Shown here: one piece after another, positions 124-34,648 of the stretch
Layout: each line of letters begins with the position of its first letter
How positions within the stretch are numbered: position 1 is the first letter of the stretch
IMG/VR virus record: IMGVR_UViG_3300010396_000023
Span: 1 to 44,269 of that record
Length of the DNA: 44,269 nt
From: a virus
Strand: one strand, 5' to 3'
Made by a program: the position numbers and the translations under genes
Notes under the pieces: model-generated
Databases searched by the model: none
The model's input: the letters and a program-made list of their open reading frames with translations, nothing else
Told to the model about the DNA's origin: nothing

Positions 124-422
124 AGCACATGGTGGAAAACGCCCACGACGCCGAGGCGGATGTGTACAACTTGATGAAACTGTGGTATAGTCTGTTTCTT
201 CCTACTATCACTCAGCGCATCGGCCTCCACCCCTCCTGGGAGCAGATTTGGGCTTTCTCCGAAGACTGTCGCATCCCCCGCATCATGACCTTCGGGAAGT
301 ACAAGGGTCAGTCCATCAACGACGTGGACCTGGGGTACATCCAGTGGTATCTTCGCCAACCCGACACCGACCCGTACGTGGTGGAGGCCTTCCACCGTGT
401 CCTTAAGGGAGAGCGCCTGTGA
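1..422 (+). CDS. DnaQ/ExoX-like DEDDh 3'-5' exonuclease, C-terminal part (gene starts at 43873 and wraps across the terminal repeat)
   Basis: The frame is continuous with the ORF starting at 43873 when position 44147 is equated with position 1 (first full codon at 3). It has an ExoIII-like HDAEADV motif. The C-terminal FGKYKGQSINDV..YIQWYL resembles the ExoX-type C-terminal domain. The stop at 420-422 overlaps the pol GTG (GTGA). Confidence 0.85.
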   Translation, partial: VVGKPDVKRICTLAMARTFWPTLDSHSQTALMYFHFGDAAKHMVENAHDAEADVYNLMKLWYSLFLPTITQRIGLHPSWEQIWAFSEDCRIPRIMTFGKYKGQSINDVDLGYIQWYLRQPDTDPYVVEAFHRVLKGERL

Positions 423-2917
423 CCATCCGCAAAGGCTCTGGCAATCCCCAGGCCCGCGTGATGGTGGTCGGTGAGGCTTGGGATTATAACTCCGAGCGCA
501 CCGGCCAGCCCTTTGAGGGCACCGCCGGCCAGGAATTCAACCGCATGCTCCAGGCCGCTGGGGTAATGTCCTCGGAGGTCTGGTTCACCAACCTCGTCAA
601 TGCCCGGCCTCCGCGCGACGACCTCGGGGAGTGGTTCGCCCTCACCAAGAAGGCCGTCACCCCCGACCATCTCCCTCTCCGGGATAAGATGGTCAAGCCT
701 ATAGTGCGGATGGGGTATGACTCCCTGATGGAGGAAATCCGCCTTGTCAACCCTAACGTCATCATCCCGGTCGGGAACTATGCCCTGTGGGCACTCACGG
801 GCGCTTGGGGTGCCCTCAAGTGGCGGGGTAGTATGCTTCGTCTGCCTGAGGAGCCGCATCCGAAAGTCATCCCTACCCTCCACCCCTCCGCTGTCATCCG
901 AGAGTGGAAATACCGTTCCATCGTCATTTCCGACCTCAAGCGAGCAGCCCGAGAAGCCCACTCCCGAGAGTGGTCCATCCCTCCCCGCGAGTGGAAGTTT
1001 ATCGTCCGACCCTCCTACACCACCGTCATGCTCACCCTTGCTGAGCTCAAGCGGCGACTCGACAAAGGAGAACGCTTGTGGATAGATTTAGATCTGGAAA
1101 CTCGGGCGGGTCATATCGCATGCTGCGGTCTGTCTTGGAGTCTGACCGACGCCCTTGTAGTCCCTCTCATGTGTGTCGAGAGTGCAGAGGGGTACTGGGC
1201 AGCGGAGGAGGAAGTCACCATCGTCTGGGCGCTGCGCCGCGTCCTCTGCCACTCGAACGTCAGTGTGCGATGGCAGAATGGCTTGTACGACGCGCAATAT
1301 ATCTGGCGTCACTGGCTCTTTGTACCGCGTGGGGTCCAAGACACTATGTTGTCGCAGCACACATGCTTCGTCGCAATGCCGAAGAGCTTGGCCTTCCAAT
1401 CCAGTATGTATTCGCCGCATTACGTATACTGGAAAGACGACGGGAAAACGTGGGGAGAAGAACAGAATGAAACTCAGCTGTGGTCCTACAATGCCCAAGA
1501 CTGCGTGCGGACGCGCGAGGTCGGGGAGAGCCTGGCCGATACGGTCAAGGCGCTCGGATTGGAAGAGGTCGAGGCCTTCCAGCAGAGGCTGTTCTGGCCC
1601 GTACTCCGCGCTATGCAGATTGGAGTGCGTGTCCTCCCTGCCGCCCGTAATGCCGTTATCACTGAACTCCAAGACGCCATAGCGGAGCGGGAGGAGTGGT
1701 TGGCCTTCGTCCTCGGCCATTCCCTCAACATAGCCTCCCCTCTGCAGATGAAGAAGCTGTTCTACGAAGACCTCAAGCAAGTTCCGGTGATGACACGGGC
1801 AACGAAGAAGAAACCCGCCACCATCACCTGCAACGACGAGGCCCTCGTCACCATCGCGAAACGGGAACCCCTCCTCAAGCCCCTCACCGTTTGCATTTCG
1901 GACATTCGGACACTCCAGATCTGGCTCAAGACCTTCGCAATGGCCAAGGTGGATTCGGACGGGCGGATGCGATGCTCCTTTAACATTGCAGGGAACGAGA
2001 CGAAGGAACAAGGGGCGGATGAGAAGGCCACCAAGGCTGCCCCCTACACTTACCGCCTCTCTTCCTCCGAGAACGCATTCGGCTCCGGGTTCAACATGCA
2101 AACCATCCCCTCGGATAAGAGTAAGTCCGCCGGGAAGGCAATCGCCCGTGGCTCCAAGATGCCCATCCCCAACCTCCGCAAGATGTTTGGACCCGATCCG
2201 GGGATGACTTTTTTTGACGCTGACTTGGACCGGGCAGACCTCCAGGTCGTTGTGTGGGAGGCAGATGATGCGATGCTTAAAGCGGCGCTCCGACAGGGGG
2301 TAGATATACACTTGCTCAACGCCTATGTCCTCGCTGGAAAAGAGCCGCCACCTCTTGACGAATTGGTTGAGAGTCATACAAAGTACAAGGATCACCGGGC
2401 GCCCTACAAAACCCAGCGAGAGTTCGCCAAGGTATTCTGTCACGCTACTGACTATGGAGGATCGGCTAAAACTATTGCAGGCCATACTGGACGAACTATC
2501 CACGAGGTAGATCGGGCACAGCGCATATGGTTTGGGGAGCATCCCGGCATCCATGCTTGGCATAAACGCGTCAATGATCAGATCACCCGCTATCATTTCA
2601 TCTCCAACCCCTTCGGCTATCGCTGGTACATCTTCGACCGCCTCGACAACGCGTTCACCGAGGCCCTAGCCTGGGTTCCCCAGTCCACTGTCGGCAATGT
2701 CATCAACCGCGTGTGGATGCAGTGGCATGACCATCTCCCTCAAGTCCAGACCCTTCTCCAAGTACACGACTCACTAGCAGGCCAGTTCCCCACACGCGAC
2801 GCCGATTGGATTAAGCCCCGCATGCTCGAGCTAGGAAAGATTGTAGTACCGTATGAAGACCCTCTGGTCATTCCCCTCGGCATGGGAACATCAGAGATTT
2901 CCTGGGGCGACTGCTGA
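419..2917 (+). CDS. Family A DNA polymerase with N-terminal uracil-DNA-glycosylase-like domain and 3'-5' exonuclease domain
   Basis: 832-aa ORF. The N-terminal ~180 aa look like a UDG family 4/5 fold (VMVVGEAWD, GQPFEGTAGQEF, WFTNLVNARPP, LHPSAV). This is followed by exo motif I (WIDLDLETR) and PolA motifs A (FFDADLDRADLQVV), B (REFAKVFCHATDYGG) and C (LLQVHDS). Confidence 0.9.
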   Translation: MTIRKGSGNPQARVMVVGEAWDYNSERTGQPFEGTAGQEFNRMLQAAGVMSSEVWFTNLVNARPPRDDLGEWFALTKKAVTPDHLPLRDKMVKPIVRMGYDSLMEEIRLVNPNVIIPVGNYALWALTGAWGALKWRGSMLRLPEEPHPKVIPTLHPSAVIREWKYRSIVISDLKRAAREAHSREWSIPPREWKFIVRPSYTTVMLTLAELKRRLDKGERLWIDLDLETRAGHIACCGLSWSLTDALVVPLMCVESAEGYWAAEEEVTIVWALRRVLCHSNVSVRWQNGLYDAQYIWRHWLFVPRGVQDTMLSQHTCFVAMPKSLAFQSSMYSPHYVYWKDDGKTWGEEQNETQLWSYNAQDCVRTREVGESLADTVKALGLEEVEAFQQRLFWPVLRAMQIGVRVLPAARNAVITELQDAIAEREEWLAFVLGHSLNIASPLQMKKLFYEDLKQVPVMTRATKKKPATITCNDEALVTIAKREPLLKPLTVCISDIRTLQIWLKTFAMAKVDSDGRMRCSFNIAGNETKEQGADEKATKAAPYTYRLSSSENAFGSGFNMQTIPSDKSKSAGKAIARGSKMPIPNLRKMFGPDPGMTFFDADLDRADLQVVVWEADDAMLKAALRQGVDIHLLNAYVLAGKEPPPLDELVESHTKYKDHRAPYKTQREFAKVFCHATDYGGSAKTIAGHTGRTIHEVDRAQRIWFGEHPGIHAWHKRVNDQITRYHFISNPFGYRWYIFDRLDNAFTEALAWVPQSTVGNVINRVWMQWHDHLPQVQTLLQVHDSLAGQFPTRDADWIKPRMLELGKIVVPYEDPLVIPLGMGTSEISWGDC

Positions 2918-2928
2918 GGGGGTGGGCA

Positions 2929-4164
2929 ATGGCCCGCGTACACAAAGACTGGTTATCCGCATTCCTCGACTTCTCCTCCTACGCGGAGAGCCCGAAGGAG
3001 ATGCGGTTTTGGGCGGGGGTGTCGGCAATTGCCGGTGCTCTCCGTCGTAAGGTATGGATCGATCAGGCATATTTCACATGGAGTCCAAACTTCTTCATCA
3101 TCCTAGTAGCCCCGCCGGGGATTGTATCCAAGTCCACCACGGCGGACCTCGCACTCTCCCTCCTCCGGGAGGTCCCCGGAATCAAGTTCGGCCCGGATGT
3201 AGTGACCTGGCCTGCCTTAGTTCAGGCACTTGCTGGGTCCTGCGAGAGCTTCGAGCTAAACGGGGAATACTACCCTATGTCGCCACTCACCCTTGTCGCA
3301 AGCGAGCTGGGGAACCTCATCCAGCCGCAGGACAGGGAACTCATCAATATGTACATCCATCTCTGGGACGGGAAGAAGTCGGTGGAGAAGGTCACCAAGA
3401 CTTCGGGGAATGATGTGGTGGAGGCTCCGTGGGTGAACATGATCGGCTGCACCACTCCCCACTGGATCGCCGACAATATGCCTCCCGCCACGGTGGGCGG
3501 AGGATTCACTTCCCGCTGCATCTTCGTCTATGCGGATAAGAAAGAACAGTTCGTGGCGTACCCTCGCTTCAACATCCCCGAGGGGTTCGCTGAGCGTCGC
3601 CTCGCCCTCATCCAGGACCTCGAACACATCTCCACCCACCTATGCGGGGAGTACATCCTCACCCGCGATGCCATCCGATGGGGAGAGAAGTGGTATCGTG
3701 ACCTCTGGACCAACCGGCCGCCCGAGCTCTCCTCGGAGAAACTCGATGGCTACGTGGCCCGGAAACAGACCCACCTCCACAAACTCGCGATGGTTGTGGC
3801 GGCCTCTCAGCGGGACGAACTCACCATCACGGAGGCCGATCTGGCCTTTGCCCAGAGTATGCTCGTCTCGGTGGAGTTGGACATGGAGAAAGTATTCTCC
3901 CGGATCGGGAAGACCGAGAATGCTCTCCAGGTGGAGAACCTCCTCGCCTATATCCAGGCTCGGGGGGCGGTCCCGGTCGACGAGGCTTATCGCTACATGA
4001 TGGCCCACTTCCCCGATTCGCGGGAGTTGGACGGGGTATTCAACGGGTTGGTGAAGGGTGGGATGGTTAACCTGGAGCAAAGGGGAATGGATATGTGGAT
4101 GATATGGCGGGATACGTCCGGGAAACGAACAGCCCCGTTAACCGGGAATAAGGAGCCTTCATGA
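2929..4164 (+). CDS. VirE/DUF3987-like P-loop NTPase (putative replicative helicase or primase-associated protein)
   Basis: 411-aa ORF directly after the pol gene. It has a deviant Walker A (LVAPPGIVSKSTTADL), a VirE-like acidic box (LVASELGNL) and NMIGCTT. Family assignment is from motif memory only. Confidence 0.6.
   Translation: MARVHKDWLSAFLDFSSYAESPKEMRFWAGVSAIAGALRRKVWIDQAYFTWSPNFFIILVAPPGIVSKSTTADLALSLLREVPGIKFGPDVVTWPALVQALAGSCESFELNGEYYPMSPLTLVASELGNLIQPQDRELINMYIHLWDGKKSVEKVTKTSGNDVVEAPWVNMIGCTTPHWIADNMPPATVGGGFTSRCIFVYADKKEQFVAYPRFNIPEGFAERRLALIQDLEHISTHLCGEYILTRDAIRWGEKWYRDLWTNRPPELSSEKLDGYVARKQTHLHKLAMVVAASQRDELTITEADLAFAQSMLVSVELDMEKVFSRIGKTENALQVENLLAYIQARGAVPVDEAYRYMMAHFPDSRELDGVFNGLVKGGMVNLEQRGMDMWMIWRDTSGKRTAPLTGNKEPS
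4118..4145. promoter_or_regulatory. CCGGGAAAC-N10-GTTaaCCGG palindrome (member of a repeated element family)
   Basis: The left half-site is exact and the right half has 2 mismatches, with an exact 10-nt spacer. It ends 16 nt upstream of the ATG at 4161. Confidence 0.5.
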
Positions 4165-4496
4165 AGCCCCCCACAATCCGTGAGGTCATATCCTCGATGG
4201 GCTATTGCTGCCCCAAGCTCTTCTTCACCATCTTCCCTTCCACCCTCACGGCGTCCCTCCGCTTGGGCTTCAGCCGCCGGGCCATCAAGTACGCCAAGCA
4301 AAAAGCCCGCACCGAGGGGTGTGCGGGCTGTGGGGGTTGCCAGTGGCCTATGCTGGCTGTACTAGAGCGCGCAGTGCAGCAACGCCGGCATCAGCTGAGT
4401 GATCCTCCACCGACAAGCCGCCCGGCCACTCCTCCGGCCGAATCACCGATAGTTGTCCGGCGTGGAGCCATAGGTGATCCCGAGGAGGATGACTAG
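4161..4496 (+). CDS. Hypothetical protein (uncertain ORF at the convergence point)
   Basis: An ATGA overlap with the upstream stop and a TAAGGAG 5 nt upstream favour translation. Against this, the last ~150 nt run antisense through the lipase-like gene and the ORF spans the late-operon terminator hairpin. Confidence 0.3.
   Translation: MKPPTIREVISSMGYCCPKLFFTIFPSTLTASLRLGFSRRAIKYAKQKARTEGCAGCGGCQWPMLAVLERAVQQRRHQLSDPPPTSRPATPPAESPIVVRRGAIGDPEEDD
4299..4329 (-). terminator. Intrinsic terminator of the leftward late operon
   Basis: A perfect 9-bp stem (agcccgcac 4304-4312 / gtgcgggct 4321-4329) with an 8-nt loop. On the minus strand it is followed by TTTTG, 19 nt downstream of the lipase-like stop at 4348. 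Confidence 0.7.
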
Positions 4497-5046
4497 CACC
4501 CCAATCTGTGACGAAGGGGTAGCCGAAGAAGATATCCCCCTGGTGGACTACGCTCACCGTGTCCTCCCTCCCATACGCCGCCCAATACGCGGCGTTTGCG
4601 GCTTTCGGGCTCTCGAACACATGGAGGCCAGCGAGACGGGACTCCGGGCAGAACAGCGGGGAGTAGTATGTCCGCCACCCGCCCAGACTATGCCCTTCCA
4701 CCCAAACCGGAGCGGTAGCGGGGAGGTTGGCAAAGACCCATTTCCACAACCCAAACAGACCCTCGAAGGGACCCGAGGCCACCTTCGCCCCGCCCCCCAC
4801 GTCCTTCCCCTCCACCTCCAGGTCCTTCAGCAGGTCCTCCACCTGCCCGTCGGAGAATCGCGTCCCGGAGATGGAGAGGAATCCTGTCCCCTCCCGCATG
4901 GTCAGTGCCGCTTGCACACTCCCCTCCCGATACTGACCTACCCAGGTCTGTCCCAACGCCTCGAACGCTCCACGCGCAGCTTCTGCGTCCATCACATAAG
5001 CCGCGCGGGCGCGTTCATACGCTGCTAGGACTTCCTCCAGGTTCAC
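4348..5046 (-). CDS. Lipase class 3-like alpha/beta serine hydrolase, last gene of the lysis cassette
   Basis: 232 aa. It has the nucleophile elbow VEGHSLGGW, a downstream HQGDIFF (candidate Asp) and a C-terminal VEDHSAD (candidate His). The GTG start overlaps the lipoprotein stop (GTGA). Confidence 0.7.
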   Translation of the reverse strand: MNLEEVLAAYERARAAYVMDAEAARGAFEALGQTWVGQYREGSVQAALTMREGTGFLSISGTRFSDGQVEDLLKDLEVEGKDVGGGAKVASGPFEGLFGLWKWVFANLPATAPVWVEGHSLGGWRTYYSPLFCPESRLAGLHVFESPKAANAAYWAAYGREDTVSVVHQGDIFFGYPFVTDWGASHPPRDHLWLHAGQLSVIRPEEWPGGLSVEDHSADAGVAALRALVQPA

Positions 5047-5354
5047 GGCGCGCTCGCGGGTTGTGGGGCGGATGCAGCGGCCACCGCACTAGCAGCCTGA
5101 GCGGCCACATCTGCTGTCGCACACACCACACTATTCGCCGCCGCCGCAGCTGCAATCTTGGGATCGGCCGCACCCGCTGCGAGCAGAGTTGGCTGAACCA
5201 CCTTACACCCGTTGCTGATGGCTTGTAAGGCCAGCGCGTTGGTTTTGTTCAGGTTGCCCAGGGTGGTGTTAAAGTTCGCCTGTTGGGCTGTCGAGCACCC
5301 CGCCAGGATATACCCCAGCACCACCAGCACCGCCACCGTCACGATCTGTTTCAT
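5043..5354 (-). CDS. Lipoprotein (o-spanin-like lysis accessory)
   Basis: Start trimmed to MKQIVTVAVLVVLGYILAGCSTAQQ, a signal peptide with lipobox LAGC. GGAGG lies upstream. An ATGA overlap links it to the preceding small TM gene. Confidence 0.75.
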   Translation of the reverse strand: MKQIVTVAVLVVLGYILAGCSTAQQANFNTTLGNLNKTNALALQAISNGCKVVQPTLLAAGAADPKIAAAAAANSVVCATADVAAQAASAVAAASAPQPASAP

Positions 5355-5533
5355 TTCGAACCTCCACGATTGAGAAGGGCATGACCGACTGCAAGGACCA
5401 ACGCCCCCAAAGTTCCCGCCACCTCGATCGGTGGAGGGGTGATATGGGCAGCCTGACAAGCCCATGTAATGACACCACCGAGCATCGCGCCTGAAATTGC
5501 AATGGCTCCGGTGTTGGTAGGTGAACCACCCAT
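5351..5533 (-). CDS. Small two-TM membrane protein (holin/antiholin-like)
   Basis: 60 aa with two hydrophobic segments (GAIAISGAMLGGVITWACQAA and VAGTLGALVLAVGHALL). It sits between the endolysin and the lipoprotein. Confidence 0.6.
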   Translation of the reverse strand: MGGSPTNTGAIAISGAMLGGVITWACQAAHITPPPIEVAGTLGALVLAVGHALLNRGGSK

Positions 5534-5558
5534 CTTAACCTCCTCGCGCGTACCGACA

Positions 5559-6080
5559 CTAAAGGCAGTCGGAGATGGTACGCATCATCTCCGTCCCGCG
5601 GTGAATCCACCCTCGACCTTCAGCCGACCATCCCGCACACTCCGTCCAGTAGTCTTCTCGGTCCGCCAGGAATCGAAGGACCACCACGGCGAGCGGATGG
5701 GAGCGCACAGCGGCGATTGTCACCGCCCCAATCCTCCCATCCACTGGTACCCCCACTGCCCGTTGCAACCACTGTGCGGGGTGCCCGCCGTTATAGGCTG
5801 CGTCAAACACCAGCCATCCAATCACCGGATTGAACTGGTCACACTGGTAAGGGTCCCAATAGCGCTCCTTCGCAAGGGCTTGCGCGCCTCCATAGGTAAG
5901 TGAAGCAATATCCACCTCCGGGAACGCCGCAGCAGAAATCCCAAACCTCGAACCCACAAGCTTTCCTGCTCCGATCTCCCCGCCCGTCCAATTCCCTCGG
6001 TCATTCGGATCGGTGGATAGTTTCCCATCTCCCTCCAGTCCGCACGTAAGCCTGAACGCATCTGCATAGCCCGTAATCAT
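5559..6080 (-). CDS. Endolysin, GH108-type muramidase with PG_binding_3-like C-terminus
   Basis: Start trimmed to MITGYADAF (GGAGGGAG upstream). GLEGDGKLSTDPNDRGNWTGG matches the GH108 EGG..DP.D.GG.T signature. GVPVDGRIGAVTIAAV is typical of the peptidoglycan-binding domain. Confidence 0.85.
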   Translation of the reverse strand: MITGYADAFRLTCGLEGDGKLSTDPNDRGNWTGGEIGAGKLVGSRFGISAAAFPEVDIASLTYGGAQALAKERYWDPYQCDQFNPVIGWLVFDAAYNGGHPAQWLQRAVGVPVDGRIGAVTIAAVRSHPLAVVVLRFLADREDYWTECAGWSAEGRGWIHRGTEMMRTISDCL

Positions 6081-6241
6081 TTCTCCCTCCGTTTGGCCGC
6101 CCACTCTGACAAGCGGATGGTGTACCAAACAATCGTCAGAAATGAAGCCACACCCGCCAGTACCTCCGGTAGTGCATGTAACACCGACAACATCGCGGCC
6201 CCCGCTGCCGTAATATCCACTACATGCTTTGCGCCTTCCAT
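6077..6241 (-). CDS. Holin-like small membrane protein
   Basis: Start trimmed to MEGAKHVVDITAAGAAMLSVLHALPEVLAGVASFLTIVWYTI...KRREK (54 aa, hydrophobic core, basic tail). AGGAG lies upstream. The stop overlaps the endolysin ATG (ATGA). Confidence 0.7.
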   Translation of the reverse strand: MEGAKHVVDITAAGAAMLSVLHALPEVLAGVASFLTIVWYTIRLSEWAAKRREK

Positions 6242-6251
6242 GGCGGTCTCC

Positions 6252-7868
6252 TTAGTTTGGTAACGGTCCCGATACTTCCCAGTACACAATAGAGGTTCCC
6301 GCCGGACCTCCAGTGTTAAGCACAATCTGAGAAGAAGCCGGACTGGTTACATACACGGTAGAAGTCGAACTGGTGGGTGCAATCAATGACACATTTATCG
6401 ATTCAGGAGTAGCTGCTAAACTAAATGGAAATGCAACTGTAACGGGAGTTCCTGCCGTAACAGTTACTTGCCCGTATATACGCATTTTTGCATTACTCAA
6501 AGGTTCATAAAACACCGGGCCCGCATACCCCGGCCAGTTTGCTGTAGAACCGAAACGATTTGTAACTGAGATAAACTCGTTCGGACCGATCCGGATATTA
6601 GGACCATTACCTGTTCCAAAGGTTATAGCAACCTGGAAAGTGTTAAAAGTATTTCCCGTAATATTTGCACTGTCTACACTGGCCAGCGCGATAGCATCTG
6701 ATGCTGCATTACCTCCAAAAAAGTTGCCTCCATGAATCTCAATCCCACCGCCTGAAAGGCTCAGCCACGTACCCCCGTTGGTTAATACATCTCCAAGCCA
6801 GTTACTGGCGAATTCCAGCCCATTAAAAGGGTTTGTTGGAAAGTTTACCATGGCCCCAGCCTCCACATTGCCGGGTGTACCACTATTATATCCTTCAAAA
6901 GTGTTGCCTTTAACCCACCAAGCCTGACCACCGCCTTGGATTGGGATCTGACTAGTATCTATAAACTGACATTGTGTGATCTTTACGACGTTTGAAAAAC
7001 TACTATTATTCGCTCCATTGATCGCATAGAGCAGTTGCCCAAACACACAAGAATCGATTTCTACTTCAATTGCCTTATCGAGGGTAATCGCCTTGGCAAT
7101 GTACTTAGCAGCGCCACTTCCGTAGAAGCCGCATCTGCGGATTTTGGTAAAGGCTGAGTTTGCCGGAGACGAACCCAGTCCCACAATGAAGCCTGTAAAA
7201 CTTGCATTTTTGGTAATAAACTGTATGCCTTCAATGCATAGAGCTACCGAGCCCGGTGCGTTGATAAAGTTAGCCGCACCCGTTGCGTTTACGTACACAA
7301 GGGTCGTTGCCGCAGCACCTGCTGTAACCCCGCCATCTCCTTTAACCGTTATACCTGTTTTATTGGTGAAATCCGGCCAAGCCGATATGGCATACGTGCG
7401 CCCTCCTGGTAGGTACAAAAGGCCTCCAGCTGCTGGTAATGCCGCAACGTAACTGGCTAAGGCCGGTGCATCGTCATGTGTTCCATCTCCATAGGCACCA
7501 AATGTAAAAATAGAAACTGGGTAGCTAGCATTTAGATACCAGCGTGTCCCATCAGCTCCTACAATAATCGTGCCATTATTGTCGAGAGAAGTCATATCAG
7601 CCAAATTGGCCCAATACAGCCCTCCACCCCCATCTCCAGAGACTCTATATCCGGTCACAAACACAAAGGGAGTAATGGAGGTTCTCACCGCCGCGCGTAA
7701 AGCTGCAATACTAGTCCGCACCGTATTGACTTGTAACGTAGCTGCAAGGCCTGGATTAACCGGAGTAGTTCCGTCCTGTCCTAACACCCGATACACGGCA
7801 TCATTAATGTCCTGACACCACGGCGCAGTAACCACCGTGATCTGCGATTGAAAGGTCGTATCCGTCAT
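6252..7868 (-). CDS. Tailspike / depolymerase with pectate-lyase-like right-handed beta-helix
   Basis: 538 aa. FGAYGDGTHDDAPAL is the Pectate_lyase_3-type signature. Repetitive G/N/T-rich beta-helix-like sequence follows. It is the last structural gene and has visibly lower GC than its neighbours. Confidence 0.8.
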   Translation of the reverse strand: MTDTTFQSQITVVTAPWCQDINDAVYRVLGQDGTTPVNPGLAATLQVNTVRTSIAALRAAVRTSITPFVFVTGYRVSGDGGGGLYWANLADMTSLDNNGTIIVGADGTRWYLNASYPVSIFTFGAYGDGTHDDAPALASYVAALPAAGGLLYLPGGRTYAISAWPDFTNKTGITVKGDGGVTAGAAATTLVYVNATGAANFINAPGSVALCIEGIQFITKNASFTGFIVGLGSSPANSAFTKIRRCGFYGSGAAKYIAKAITLDKAIEVEIDSCVFGQLLYAINGANNSSFSNVVKITQCQFIDTSQIPIQGGGQAWWVKGNTFEGYNSGTPGNVEAGAMVNFPTNPFNGLEFASNWLGDVLTNGGTWLSLSGGGIEIHGGNFFGGNAASDAIALASVDSANITGNTFNTFQVAITFGTGNGPNIRIGPNEFISVTNRFGSTANWPGYAGPVFYEPLSNAKMRIYGQVTVTAGTPVTVAFPFSLAATPESINVSLIAPTSSTSTVYVTSPASSQIVLNTGGPAGTSIVYWEVSGPLPN

Positions 7869-7880
7869 TTTATTCTCCGT

Positions 7881-9002
7881 TCAATTCGTACGTTGAGCTA
7901 CGATAAAGCCTATTGCAGTGTTGGTTGAAACTGCAAAGGTGGAATTTACAACCAGATAGTAGACGGTGTTTGTCGTCACCCGAATCGGCATCGGATCAAG
8001 CGTTCCACCCACTGCTGATCCGGCCGGAGCAGAGAACGGAAGAAGGAACTCCGCCACCTGTCCGGTGAAGGATGTGCTGGTCGGGCTGATCGCTGCGTTG
8101 ACGATCGATTGCGTCGTCGAGCCAGCCGGGATCGTCAGCACTTGCCCCCACACCCGCCAGTTCCCTGGTGTAAGAGTGATCGACGCCACATTCGAAGTAA
8201 CGCCGCTGCTCAGCGAAACAGGCGTGCTCGAATTCGTCGCGCAGCCTGTAGGCGAACCTCCGTTCGTGACTTGTGCACAAATCACTTCGCCCACGTCGCC
8301 TGTCCCGGCCGCCACCCCATTCGTGGGGCCAACAATGGCAGGCGTTGTGATTGTAGGGGCTATAGCCAATACCGCCCCACCCGAGCCCGTTACCGCACTT
8401 CCCAATGCCGTTGCTACCCCCGTTCCAAGTCCCGACACTCCTGTGGAGATTGGCAGGCCTGTACCGTTGGTGAGGGTTACTGCTGAAGGTGTTCCAAGAG
8501 CAGGCGTGGTGGATATTGTAACCACTCCCGCACTAAACACCGGCACCCCCGTGGAAGTACTGTTGTTAGCCCCTAGGCCCCCGGCCCAAGTTCCCAACGG
8601 AGTTGTTAAACCAGTCAGGGAAGTGATGTTGGAATTAGCCCCGGCATTGGCCACCGTACCACATGTGAAACTGCCTGTGTTATACTGTAGCGCAGAGGCT
8701 GCAGTGTTGCACCCTGTGGGCAGTGCTATCGCCGCGGGCGAAGCAGCAGTTCCCGTCACATTCGCCAACACGGTGTTAGCTGCTTGACTCGCCAAGTCCG
8801 TTGGAGTGATCAACCCTGTTGCCGTCAATCCCATCGTGACAGTTAGCCCGCTAACCTGCCCATTCACCGTGTTAACGGCCTGGGCGAAGGCTGCATTCAA
8901 TTGTGCTGCCGTGAGGATTTGCCCGGACAGAAAACCAGGAGTCACCTGTCCAAATGCTGCACCGCACAGTACTATGCCAAATAGTCCAAGTAGACGTTTC
9001 AT
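7881..9002 (-). CDS. Tail fibre protein with signal-peptide-like N-terminus
   Basis: 373 aa. It has T/G/A/S-rich fibre-type repeats (TNGTGLPISTGVSGLGTGVATALGSAV). The N-terminus MKRLLGLFGIVLCGAAFGQV looks Sec-like. Confidence 0.75.
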   Translation of the reverse strand: MKRLLGLFGIVLCGAAFGQVTPGFLSGQILTAAQLNAAFAQAVNTVNGQVSGLTVTMGLTATGLITPTDLASQAANTVLANVTGTAASPAAIALPTGCNTAASALQYNTGSFTCGTVANAGANSNITSLTGLTTPLGTWAGGLGANNSTSTGVPVFSAGVVTISTTPALGTPSAVTLTNGTGLPISTGVSGLGTGVATALGSAVTGSGGAVLAIAPTITTPAIVGPTNGVAAGTGDVGEVICAQVTNGGSPTGCATNSSTPVSLSSGVTSNVASITLTPGNWRVWGQVLTIPAGSTTQSIVNAAISPTSTSFTGQVAEFLLPFSAPAGSAVGGTLDPMPIRVTTNTVYYLVVNSTFAVSTNTAIGFIVAQRTN

Positions 9003-33387: not shown

Positions 33388-33714
33388 ATGCCCCGCATCC
33401 CACCCGGCACAAAGCGGGTTGAGGTCTACCTCCCCCCTGAGCTTGCCTCCCGCGTGGAGGCTTTCCTCCGTTCGGACGCGTTGGGGAGGGTTCCGCACGG
33501 CTCGTGGAACGCCTTCCTCCTCCAGCGCGTGAATGAATTCTTTGCGTCCGCCAGACTACCCCTCGGTCAATATGAGGGGTTCGGGGCGGACGCCTGGGTG
33601 GGGGGACCGCCCGCTGCAATCCGCACCCTCGCGGCTCACCTCGCCCCCCACCGTCAGGGCTCACCCCTGATCGATGCCGCTTTCCCCGAATTGATGCCCC
33701 CATCGGGGGACTAA
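33388..33714 (+). CDS. Ribbon-helix-helix (CopG/Arc-like) protein
   Basis: KRVEVYLPPELASRVEAFL is a typical RHH N-terminal strand-helix. GAGGAGA RBS. Confidence 0.55.
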   Translation: MPRIPPGTKRVEVYLPPELASRVEAFLRSDALGRVPHGSWNAFLLQRVNEFFASARLPLGQYEGFGADAWVGGPPAAIRTLAAHLAPHRQGSPLIDAAFPELMPPSGD

Positions 33715-33746
33715 CCCGCCCGCCCGTGCAGGTAAAGGAGCTAGCC

Positions 33747-34064
33747 ATGCCGCACCCAGAAGTGTTGGTTGAGATGGATCTGACAAATGACATACGTTGG
33801 TACACAGTGAAGGGGAAACACTACGCCTTTTACGGTGCGACTCGCAGGCTGAGCGGCACTACTCCGAGCATCGCCGGAGAGGAGTCTCCTCCCTATCATC
33901 CAGGATGGAGCCTGTTTGTTGCGTGTGAAGCAGACTATCTCGAAGCTAAACCCCGCCTAGTCCCAGCCTACCCTCCGGCAGCCCCCTCTATCGAGGATCG
34001 CCCCGGCTTGCGCCCCGAATACGTCGATTGGGAAGCTCACCGCGCCTTCCTCCGGAGCCTGTGA
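33747..34064 (+). CDS. Hypothetical protein
   Basis: Start trimmed to ATG 33747 (AAGGAG upstream). TGATG coupling to the next gene. Confidence 0.55.
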   Translation: MPHPEVLVEMDLTNDIRWYTVKGKHYAFYGATRRLSGTTPSIAGEESPPYHPGWSLFVACEADYLEAKPRLVPAYPPAAPSIEDRPGLRPEYVDWEAHRAFLRSL

Positions 34065-34648
34065 TGACCCCCCGCGAACCCCTCCTCTGGCGACTCCTCG
34101 CCCGCGCGGTGTCCTCCACCCCCATCCGTTGGTGGATCATCCGGCGCGCCCTCCGCGCCCCCTACACCCATATCGGCCCCCAGGGGGATGTGTACATGGG
34201 TCGCTGGTGGGTGTTCAATTCCTATGGGCGGGATTACACTCCCCGTTGGCTCGGGCTCCCCTCCATCCGCCTTCATTCCATCAACCGGCCCGATCACGCC
34301 CCCCATCTCCACGATCATCCCCTCCGTTCCCGCGCCATCATCCTCCGGGGTGGGTACGGAGAGACTCGCTACGGGCGTCGCCCCTCCGGCCTATGGTGGG
34401 GACGGGGGGATACCTACTCTCTCCGTCCCGGCATAGACTTCCACAACATCTACGCGGTGGGCTCGGGCGGTGCGCTCACCCTCTTCATCACCTGGCCCCC
34501 TCGCGACGGGGAGTGCACAGAATGGGGCTTCCTGGTCGACGGGGAGAAGGTGGGACATTTGGAATACAACCGGAGGTTTGGCCGTGAGACGGACGTCCCC
34601 GGTAAACCCCTCAATTCGTTTCCCGGAGAATCCCATGCTAACTCGTAA
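34064..34648 (+). CDS. Conserved phage protein with His-rich metal-site-like motif (cupin-like?)
   Basis: Start trimmed to MTPREPLL. The segment RLHSINRPDHAPHLHDHPLRSRAIILRGGYGE recalls an LH...D...HDHPW..S.IL.G.Y.E family seen in many phages. Function is unknown. Confidence 0.6.
   Translation: MTPREPLLWRLLARAVSSTPIRWWIIRRALRAPYTHIGPQGDVYMGRWWVFNSYGRDYTPRWLGLPSIRLHSINRPDHAPHLHDHPLRSRAIILRGGYGETRYGRRPSGLWWGRGDTYSLRPGIDFHNIYAVGSGGALTLFITWPPRDGECTEWGFLVDGEKVGHLEYNRRFGRETDVPGKPLNSFPGESHANS
34599..34626. promoter_or_regulatory. CCGGtAAAC-N10-GTTTCCCGG palindrome overlapping the RBS of the 34635 gene
   Basis: It has one mismatch to the 30481 palindrome and an identical 10-nt spacing. The right arm runs into GGAGAA, and the ATG is at 34635. 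Confidence 0.55.

Follow-up and report, generated by a model that had tools for sequence, protein, structure and literature searches.

The window analysed here, a stretch of soil phage DNA of 44,269 nucleotides (IMG/VR record IMGVR_UViG_3300010396_000023) that represents approximately a whole phage genome (source contig 44,176 bp), carries a lysis cassette that ends in a lipoprotein gene and a serine hydrolase gene. In our estimate there is an even chance that the lipoprotein, here called LipoB, and its lipolytic enzyme constitute a module for the last, outer-membrane step of host lysis. More tentatively, LipoB together with an interchangeable lipolytic enzyme could represent an undescribed class of outer-membrane disruption that replaces spanins in many Burkholderia, Paraburkholderia and Ralstonia phages and acts by hydrolysis rather than by fusion, a broader claim that we rate as somewhat less probable. 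The five open reading frames (ORFs) of the cassette were all found on the minus strand, where an earlier reading of the sequence alone (the sequence-only reading) had placed them, and they form a single tightly coupled late-operon unit with a strong terminator at its end. The LipoB gene (5354..5043, minus strand, ATG start, 103 amino acids (aa)) and the hydrolase gene (5046..4348, minus strand, GTG start, 232 aa), the last of the cassette, are joined by an overlap of the LipoB TGA with the hydrolase GTG (GTGA), as that reading had also noted.

The hydrolase adopts a class 3 lipase fold, in agreement with its initial description as class-3-lipase-like. The AlphaFold2 model, computed with 36 homologues as input, has a mean predicted local distance difference test score (pLDDT) of 94.1 and a predicted template modelling score of 0.92. 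Its best PDB matches in Foldseek are fungal class 3 lipases (E 4e-10 to 1e-8, template modelling (TM) scores 0.62-0.73), with 1tic, 6a0w, 1tgl, 5gw8 and 3uuf among the matches; mono-/diacylglycerol lipases and feruloyl esterase A (1usw, 1uwc) are also neighbours, and plant EDS1/PAD4 and a phospholipase A1 rank next. Within the viral structure library BFVD, the closest models are class 3 lipases of giant viruses and of uncultured phages. By sequence, the hydrolase matches no PDB entry, finds nothing significant in PHROGs or NCBIfam, and reaches Pfam Lipase_3 (PF01764) only below the gathering threshold (E=0.029, 14.7 bits against a cut-off of 22), so the class 3 lipase assignment rests on the fold and on profile alignment; a homologue, P0006, does carry PF01764 in a precomputed table. 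The hydrolase family profile detects PDB lipases at E=2e-4 and aligns GHSLGG (S120) with the nucleophile elbow of Rhizopus lipase and D171 with the catalytic Asp of the Rhizopus RDIVP motif, while the invariant D215-H216 presumably corresponds to the DH motif of class 3 lipases. S120, D171, H216 and a GT(R) oxyanion motif do not vary in the close family, nor in representatives of only 21-36% identity, and we propose Ser120/Asp171/His216 as the putative catalytic triad.

The hydrolase belongs to a sizeable family. A collection of 5.8 billion proteins holds 57 homologues, whose named sources are all Paraburkholderia, Burkholderia or Herbaspirillum, and an exhaustive profile search yielded 155 cluster representatives at E<=1e-10, of which 61 reach E<=1e-30; the full-length members are almost without exception single-domain proteins of 230-260 aa. 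Among cultured phages, tblastn with the hydrolase found only gp226 of jumbo phage FLC9, in an uninformative context, and a scan of viral contigs with alignment A3 gave no match. Of the 29 substitutions listed inside the hydrolase ORF for a natural variant (about 94% identity), 26 change the third position of a codon. These substitutions, together with the 57 homologues of the hydrolase and the 22 clusters of LipoB described below, show that both are real genes and not chance ORFs. The hydrolase contains neither a signal peptide nor a transmembrane segment. We conclude that it is a remote but genuine serine hydrolase of the class 3 lipase fold, under purifying selection and synthesised in the cytoplasm, and we infer that it is lipolytic and acts on a lipid substrate.

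LipoB carries a lipobox (LAG followed by C20) with Ser at +2, and since Asp is absent from this position, the E. coli sorting rule predicts an outer-membrane destination. Its mature form of 83 aa ends in an Ala/Pro-rich tail and contains, besides C20, the two cysteines C50 and C78, making three in all, where the sequence-only reading had counted three further ones. Two forms of LipoB were found. The short form (86-123 aa), to which the window copy belongs, is a family of 22 clusters in which C20, C50 and C78 are invariant; the long form (137-193 aa) has an additional two-helix C-domain of about 55 aa, whose C-terminal helix has a borderline hydropathy of 1.2-2.1, often contains K, Q or N, and lacks a basic anchor. 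An AlphaFold2 model of LipoB is an all-helical hairpin of low confidence (pLDDT 62). Searches of PHROGs and NCBIfam gave sub-threshold matches at the level of the signal peptide only, including Lpp/YqhH-like ones, and no PHROG spanin family; tblastn with the window LipoB against cultured phages found none. The possibility that the short window copy is a one-off truncation was rejected, as the short form recurs stably across 22 clusters.

No spanin pair was recognised among the ORFs of the window. In the C-terminal part of the window LipoB, hydropathy reaches at most about 1.5, which bears out the earlier remark that the lipoprotein lacks a C-terminal transmembrane domain (TMD) of the u-spanin type. 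LipoB as a u-spanin was rejected for the window copy, the helix being absent from the conserved short form, and is unlikely for the long forms. The u-spanins of a published census are reported to be without periplasmic Cys (PMC6139136), and the borderline long-form helix and the two conserved periplasmic Cys of LipoB both speak against a u-spanin. In a lipobox scan of the 44-kb window in all six frames and with all start codons, LipoB was the sole credible candidate. With its lipobox, Ser+2 and periplasmic Cys it could serve as an o-spanin, but the i-spanin partner is absent: no ORF with an N-terminal transmembrane segment followed by a charged helical or coiled-coil periplasmic domain was found in the 44-kb window, so that the lack of an i-spanin, first remarked for the cassette, extends to the whole window. 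No spanin is identifiable in about 13% of phages of Gram-negative hosts in the same census (PMC6139136).

LipoB and the lipase are linked well beyond the window. Loci encoding hydrolase relatives were collected from 23 viral contigs, 10 bacterial genomes (Paraburkholderia throughout, except for one Herbaspirillum metagenome-assembled genome) and several assemblies. In 35 of the 36 loci the gene immediately before the lipase encodes a LipoB homologue and usually overlaps the lipase start; the one exception (L022) is a 32%-identical lipase copy among replication genes. The pair follows at least four types of endolysin (GH108, GH24, GH19/chitinase-like and glucosaminidase-like) and is preceded by a small transmembrane protein in 30/36 loci. 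In 17/36 loci a second lipoprotein with a CC motif, LipoA (62-105 aa), lies between the small transmembrane protein and LipoB; it finds nothing significant in PHROGs or NCBIfam. LipoA occurs in a long form (L004, L006, L009, L017, L020, L021) and a short form (L002, L011-L015, L023, L029), and some short copies seem to lack the lipobox Cys. One distant lipase-family protein, 31% identical, is encoded between the genes for a holin-like protein and for Hydrolase_2, a SleB-type cell-wall hydrolase; just upstream of its gene is an ORF with an internal lipobox. In another distant relative (L038:2-667), a two-transmembrane segment, a Pro/Ala-rich linker and a lipoprotein signal (LLMLGGC) stand in one frame upstream of the lipase; this single frame reflects either a fusion or an internal start.

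Reverse searches starting from related endolysins and from LipoB reveal that the enzyme, and the slot as a whole, can be exchanged. Two loci with a related GH108 endolysin (L050, L073) have embedded Rz/Rz1-type genes downstream of the endolysin instead. In a third (L049, IMGVR_UViG_2695420309_000001), the related GH108 endolysin is followed by a two-transmembrane protein, a LipoB homologue and a patatin-like phospholipase (Pfam PF01734, E=4.5e-26), the last ATGA-coupled to LipoB; this coupled pair is placed at about +281 to +1368 past the endolysin end. In L051 and L045, again with a related GH108 endolysin, a LipoB-like lipoprotein precedes a protein of about 155 aa, which likewise fills the enzyme slot in L108. 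This 155-aa protein has a conserved His (FAHVD) and Cys (WFCSE), finds no match in Pfam or PDB and only PHROG 1128, a name that is doubtful, among PHROGs; that it is a permuted papain-like hydrolase is a guess. Across 24 viral contigs with a short-form LipoB 35-77% identical to the window copy, the gene downstream encodes a compact protein of about 195 aa in 16, the 232-aa lipase in 4 and the 155-aa protein in 1, and is not clear in 3. By sequence, the compact protein clearly belongs to the class 3 lipases (Pfam Lipase_3, E=2e-16; PHROG 21992 'esterase/lipase', E=9e-60), related to the window lipase family at about 21% identity and an hhalign probability of 92%. The coupling of LipoB to two remote class 3 lipases and to an unrelated patatin fold is difficult to account for if the module does not serve to hydrolyse lipids.

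The same arrangement is found in cultured phages. Burkholderia phage BgManors32 encodes a holin-like protein (gp47), a GH19 endolysin (gp46), an HNH endonuclease (gp45), a transmembrane protein (gp44), LipoB (gp43) and the compact lipase (gp42), and gp53 to gp58 of Ralstonia phage Raharianne follow the same order, with gp58 as the lipase. In both, the module of the window, made up of a small transmembrane protein, LipoB and a class 3 lipase (here of PHROG 21992), follows an endolysin and an HNH gene; the lipases differ in length (about 195 aa) and sequence (about 21% identity) from the window enzyme, which matches no PHROG. The compact lipase is also present in Ralstonia phages Hyacinthe and Albius and in a record named Shewanella phage vB_Sb_QDWS. 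No annotated spanin and, by scan, no other credible spanin-type ORF was found in complete Raharianne or in the first 50 kb of the 59.8-kb BgManors32 genome. The papers describing BgManors32 and Raharianne mention neither lipase nor spanin, the lipases being annotated by name only, and a full-text literature search returned no paper on a class 3 lipase in a lysis cassette of a Gram-negative phage. As far as the libraries searched show, the LipoB-lipase module is therefore undescribed, while its individual folds are ordinary. The expectation that the window cassette would be an unusual solution does not hold in the sense of a unique one; it is rather one instance of a recurrent module of Burkholderiales phages.

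One alternative concerns the bond that is cleaved. The hydrolase might be an esterase for a non-lipid ester of the envelope, such as O-acetyl groups on peptidoglycan, lipopolysaccharide or exopolysaccharide, and would then aid the endolysin or destroy receptors on debris. The presence of feruloyl esterase A among the top structural matches and the below-threshold Lipase_3 score of the window enzyme are in keeping with this idea, as is a separate esterase near the cassette of Raharianne, where a GDSL-type esterase with a lipoprotein signal is encoded at 33414-34220 (minus strand; L128), on the opposite strand and just upstream of the lysis cassette. However, the structural neighbours of the hydrolase are mostly true lipases, mono-/diacylglycerol lipases and a phospholipase A1, the same slot can hold a patatin-like phospholipase, of a family that acts on glycerolipids, and the module accompanies endolysins of differing bond specificities. 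We regard a non-lipid ester as a quite improbable substrate.

A second alternative starts from the small membrane protein. LipoB could be the outer-membrane half of a non-canonical spanin-like device, completed by the small membrane protein, by LipoA or by its own C-terminal helix, with the lipase as an accessory that clears, for example, debris or vesicles trapping progeny. The regular presence of a small transmembrane protein before LipoB fits such a device, as does the coupling in the window, where the stop of the two-transmembrane gene overlaps the LipoB ATG (ATGA). Many of the small transmembrane proteins also share with LipoB similar Ala/Pro-rich tails, the C-terminal helix of the long form is borderline hydrophobic (1.2-2.1), and LipoB is better conserved than the swappable enzyme. 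In addition, one locus alone (L021) encodes an Rz-like protein of 181 aa (PHROG 1403, E=0.0016), which takes the position of the small transmembrane protein and whose gene overlaps the LipoA start, as in overlapped spanins. The window proteins are poorly suited to this role. The two-transmembrane protein (5533..5351, minus strand, 60 aa) has hydropathy peaks at about residues 9-27 and 36-54, which leave a loop of about 10 residues between the transmembrane segments and a tail of 6 residues; without a sizeable periplasmic domain it cannot span the periplasm and is not a classical i-spanin. It has only 3 close homologues and nothing significant among PHROGs and NCBIfam. The window LipoB, at 83 aa when mature, has no TMD, the charges flanking the transmembrane segments in several homologues of the small protein suggest that the Pro-rich tails are cytoplasmic, and the two invariant Cys of LipoB contrast with the census u-spanins, which have no periplasmic Cys (PMC6139136). 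A spanin-like device would moreover leave the constant partner of lipolytic type unexplained, and we consider it unlikely.

A third possibility, to which we assign a similarly low probability, is that the pair is moron-type cargo at the end of the late operon and plays no part in lysing the cell that produces the phage. It would then be a lipase-inhibitor pair like Tle/Tli, an exclusion lipoprotein of the T5 Llp/Cor type, or a factor that acts after release on neighbours or the environment. In type VI Tle/Tli systems, a GxSxG lipase that hits envelope phospholipids from the periplasm is likewise encoded next to a periplasmic lipoprotein, its immunity partner; the compact lipase has weak, sub-threshold matches to Pfam Tle3. 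The module sits at the extreme end of the operon, beside a terminator or prophage ends, in a region that can evidently accept cargo, given the HNH insertions at many loci, and distant homologues are also encoded away from lysis genes. HNH endonuclease genes were seen between the endolysin and the small transmembrane protein in L002, L006, L008, L009, L012, L016 and L028, and as gp45 of BgManors32 and gp55 of Raharianne. Against cargo stand the translational coupling of the pair into the lysis operon, with no promoter-like site of its own, the absence of a secretion signal from the lipase, and the position of a distant member between holin-like and cell-wall hydrolase genes. The window phage also appears to be of virulent type (DNA polymerase A and primase; no integrase seen), which makes lysogenic conversion unlikely, and cargo would leave no spanin for the outer-membrane step. 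The parallel with Tle/Tli fails on further points: the window context is a phage late operon with no type VI genes, one conserved LipoB family goes with class 3 lipases, a patatin-like enzyme and the 155-aa protein, specific immunity proteins do not pair with three unrelated enzyme folds in this way, and an inhibitor would be counter-productive in a lysis cassette.

We return to an outer-membrane lysis module, for which the following sequence of events can be envisaged. During late expression, LipoB would be exported via Sec, Lgt/Lsp and Lol to the periplasmic face of the outer membrane, while the lipase would accumulate in the cytoplasm, as would the soluble GH108 endolysin. Opening of the inner membrane by the holin would allow both enzymes to reach the periplasm, where the endolysin would clear the murein and the lipase would cleave ester-linked acyl chains of envelope lipids, most likely those of phospholipids in the inner leaflet of the outer membrane. 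LipoB may target or prime the outer membrane for the lipase, or weaken the outer membrane in parallel, and the outer membrane would then give way without a membrane-fusing spanin. The activity and substrate of the lipase, the localisation of LipoB, the timing of these steps and the need of lysis for the module are thus all predictions of the model. That the hydrolase attacks lipids as the last lysis step had been suggested from the window alone; comparison now lends this part substantial support, in that the pair follows many endolysins, unrelated lipolytic enzymes occupy the same slot, Rz/Rz1 stand at that position in some phages with a related endolysin, and no spanin was found in cultured Raharianne or in the first 50 kb of BgManors32.

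Several observations weigh against such a role. In L021, the Rz-like i-spanin and LipoA coexist with LipoB and the lipase. Morons are found preferentially at late-operon ends, and with HNH genes inserted in several cassettes, position alone is weak evidence. Distant homologues lie outside lysis cassettes, among replication genes in L022 and beside tail-fibre-like neighbours in FLC9. LipoB is conserved at 65-68% identity where its enzyme partners share about 21% or have unrelated folds, and this better conservation weakens models that require a specific LipoB-enzyme interface. Finally, unless something keeps it in check, a phospholipid-active lipase should damage the inner membrane before the holin triggers. 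The alternatives draw their remaining weight from the coexistence in L021, from the HNH insertions and from the question of how a cytoplasmic lipase would be kept harmless.

Comparison with known systems helps to delimit what may be new here. LysB of mycobacteriophages is a signal-less serine esterase, encoded by a distal cassette gene and released by the holin, that attacks the lipid layer outside the murein last (PMC5707550). The window hydrolase is also signal-less and the product of the last cassette gene, so the analogy with LysB drawn in the sequence-only reading can be kept for the inferred role, but not as homology. LysB has a cutinase-like fold and the window enzyme a fungal-type class 3 lipase fold, and LysB-type matches in BFVD are weak (Gordonia phage GMA6 Lysin B, E=0.058, TM score 0.20; Arthrobacter phage esterases, E 0.07-0.11). 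In addition, the host of the window phage is a lipopolysaccharide-bearing diderm without mycolic acids, and the window enzyme is strictly paired with a lipoprotein, whereas LysB is unpaired.

Spanins such as lambda Rz/Rz1 and T1 gp11 are proposed to work by membrane fusion, not hydrolysis (PMC6139136). They share with the window module the cassette position downstream of the endolysin and a lipoprotein of outer-membrane type. The window differs in having no type II coiled-coil inner-membrane partner and no C-terminal TMD in its lipoprotein, and LipoB differs in being predicted helical, with two conserved Cys and an obligatorily attached enzyme. The nearest functional parallel to a lipoprotein with a lipolytic enzyme is found in the colicin lysis lipoproteins (about 30 aa when mature), which together with host OMPLA permeabilise the outer membrane and lead to quasi-lysis. 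This likeness is functional only, for there the phospholipase is host OMPLA and here a phage-encoded, cytoplasmic enzyme, and LipoB is longer (about 83 aa when mature). The disruptin gp28 of phage phiKT, a cationic protein resembling antimicrobial peptides, carries out the outer-membrane step in a spanin-less coliphage (bioRxiv 10.1101/515445); unlike the window module, gp28 is neither an enzyme nor a lipoprotein.

The remainder of the cassette is of more familiar type. It begins with a holin-like gene (6241..6077, minus strand, ATG start, 54 aa; Shine-Dalgarno (SD) site AAGGAG), whose product combines two segments of weak hydrophobicity with a basic C-terminus, RLSEWAAKRREK. It belongs to no Pfam or PHROG family, and a homologue stands at the equivalent position in L025. 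Its position and shape make it the presumed holin. A sub-threshold match to the NCBIfam circularin A/uberolysin family of circular bacteriocins (E=1.3e-4, 22.2 bits, cut-off 30.7) probably reflects merely shared hydrophobic helices. The holin stop overlaps the ATG of the endolysin gene (6080..5559, minus strand, 173 aa) as ATGA. The endolysin matches Pfam Glyco_hydro_108 (PF05838) above the cut-off (E=7.7e-11) and PHROG 315 'endolysin' (E=2.4e-26), and contains a PG_binding_3-like domain (PF09374) that scores 23.4 bits, just under the cut-off of 24.6. As it has neither a transmembrane segment nor a signal sequence, it should need a canonical holin. Between its end and the start of the two-transmembrane gene lies a gap of 25 nt that holds a GAGGAGG SD site.

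Nineteen nucleotides past the hydrolase stop, an intrinsic terminator (4329..4304, minus strand; a 9-bp stem with 7 GC pairs followed by a T-run, TTTTGCTT) closes the late/lysis operon, which begins upstream with terminase, portal, head-closure and tail-fibre genes and of which the hydrolase gene is the last. Directly upstream of the lysis cassette is a tail fibre/depolymerase-like gene (6252-7868, minus strand), and the GC content of window positions 6001-8000 is 0.49 against about 0.60 elsewhere, which suggests that a receptor-binding module was recently acquired upstream of the cassette. Beyond the terminator, the DUF3987 primase-like gene (2929-4164, plus strand) is convergent with the cassette, and together with the DNA polymerase A gene (the two at 419-4164, plus strand) it converges on the lysis genes. 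Its product is 50-54% identical to versions in an uncultured freshwater phage and in Microcystis phage Mel-JY34, and about 24% identical to those of Pseudomonas phages 119X and PaP2; these identities point to a backbone of a small podovirus-like lineage without a close cultured relative. The gene orders of backbone relatives chosen by DUF3987 (119X, Tiera, MW202489) differ from that of the window and allow no clean positional comparison, and a DNA search of the cassette region against cultured phages gave no match. The metatranscriptome run X3 consists of one assembled 37.6-kb contig only and carries no expression information.

In the literature surveyed, the phiKT disruptin is the only worked-out alternative to spanins. 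The proposed module, if confirmed, would be a second and enzymatic one, and a diderm counterpart of mycobacteriophage LysB. It also hints at the function of PHROG 21992 and of LipoB and the 232-aa lipase, two families that lack annotation, and is directly testable in the cultured phages BgManors32, Raharianne, Hyacinthe and Albius. Those who seek to use endolysins against Gram-negative bacteria would have an interest in an enzyme pair able to breach the outer membrane from inside. For the phages themselves, such a module would explain how a set of Burkholderiales phages completes lysis, and it would bear on lysis by spanin-less phages.

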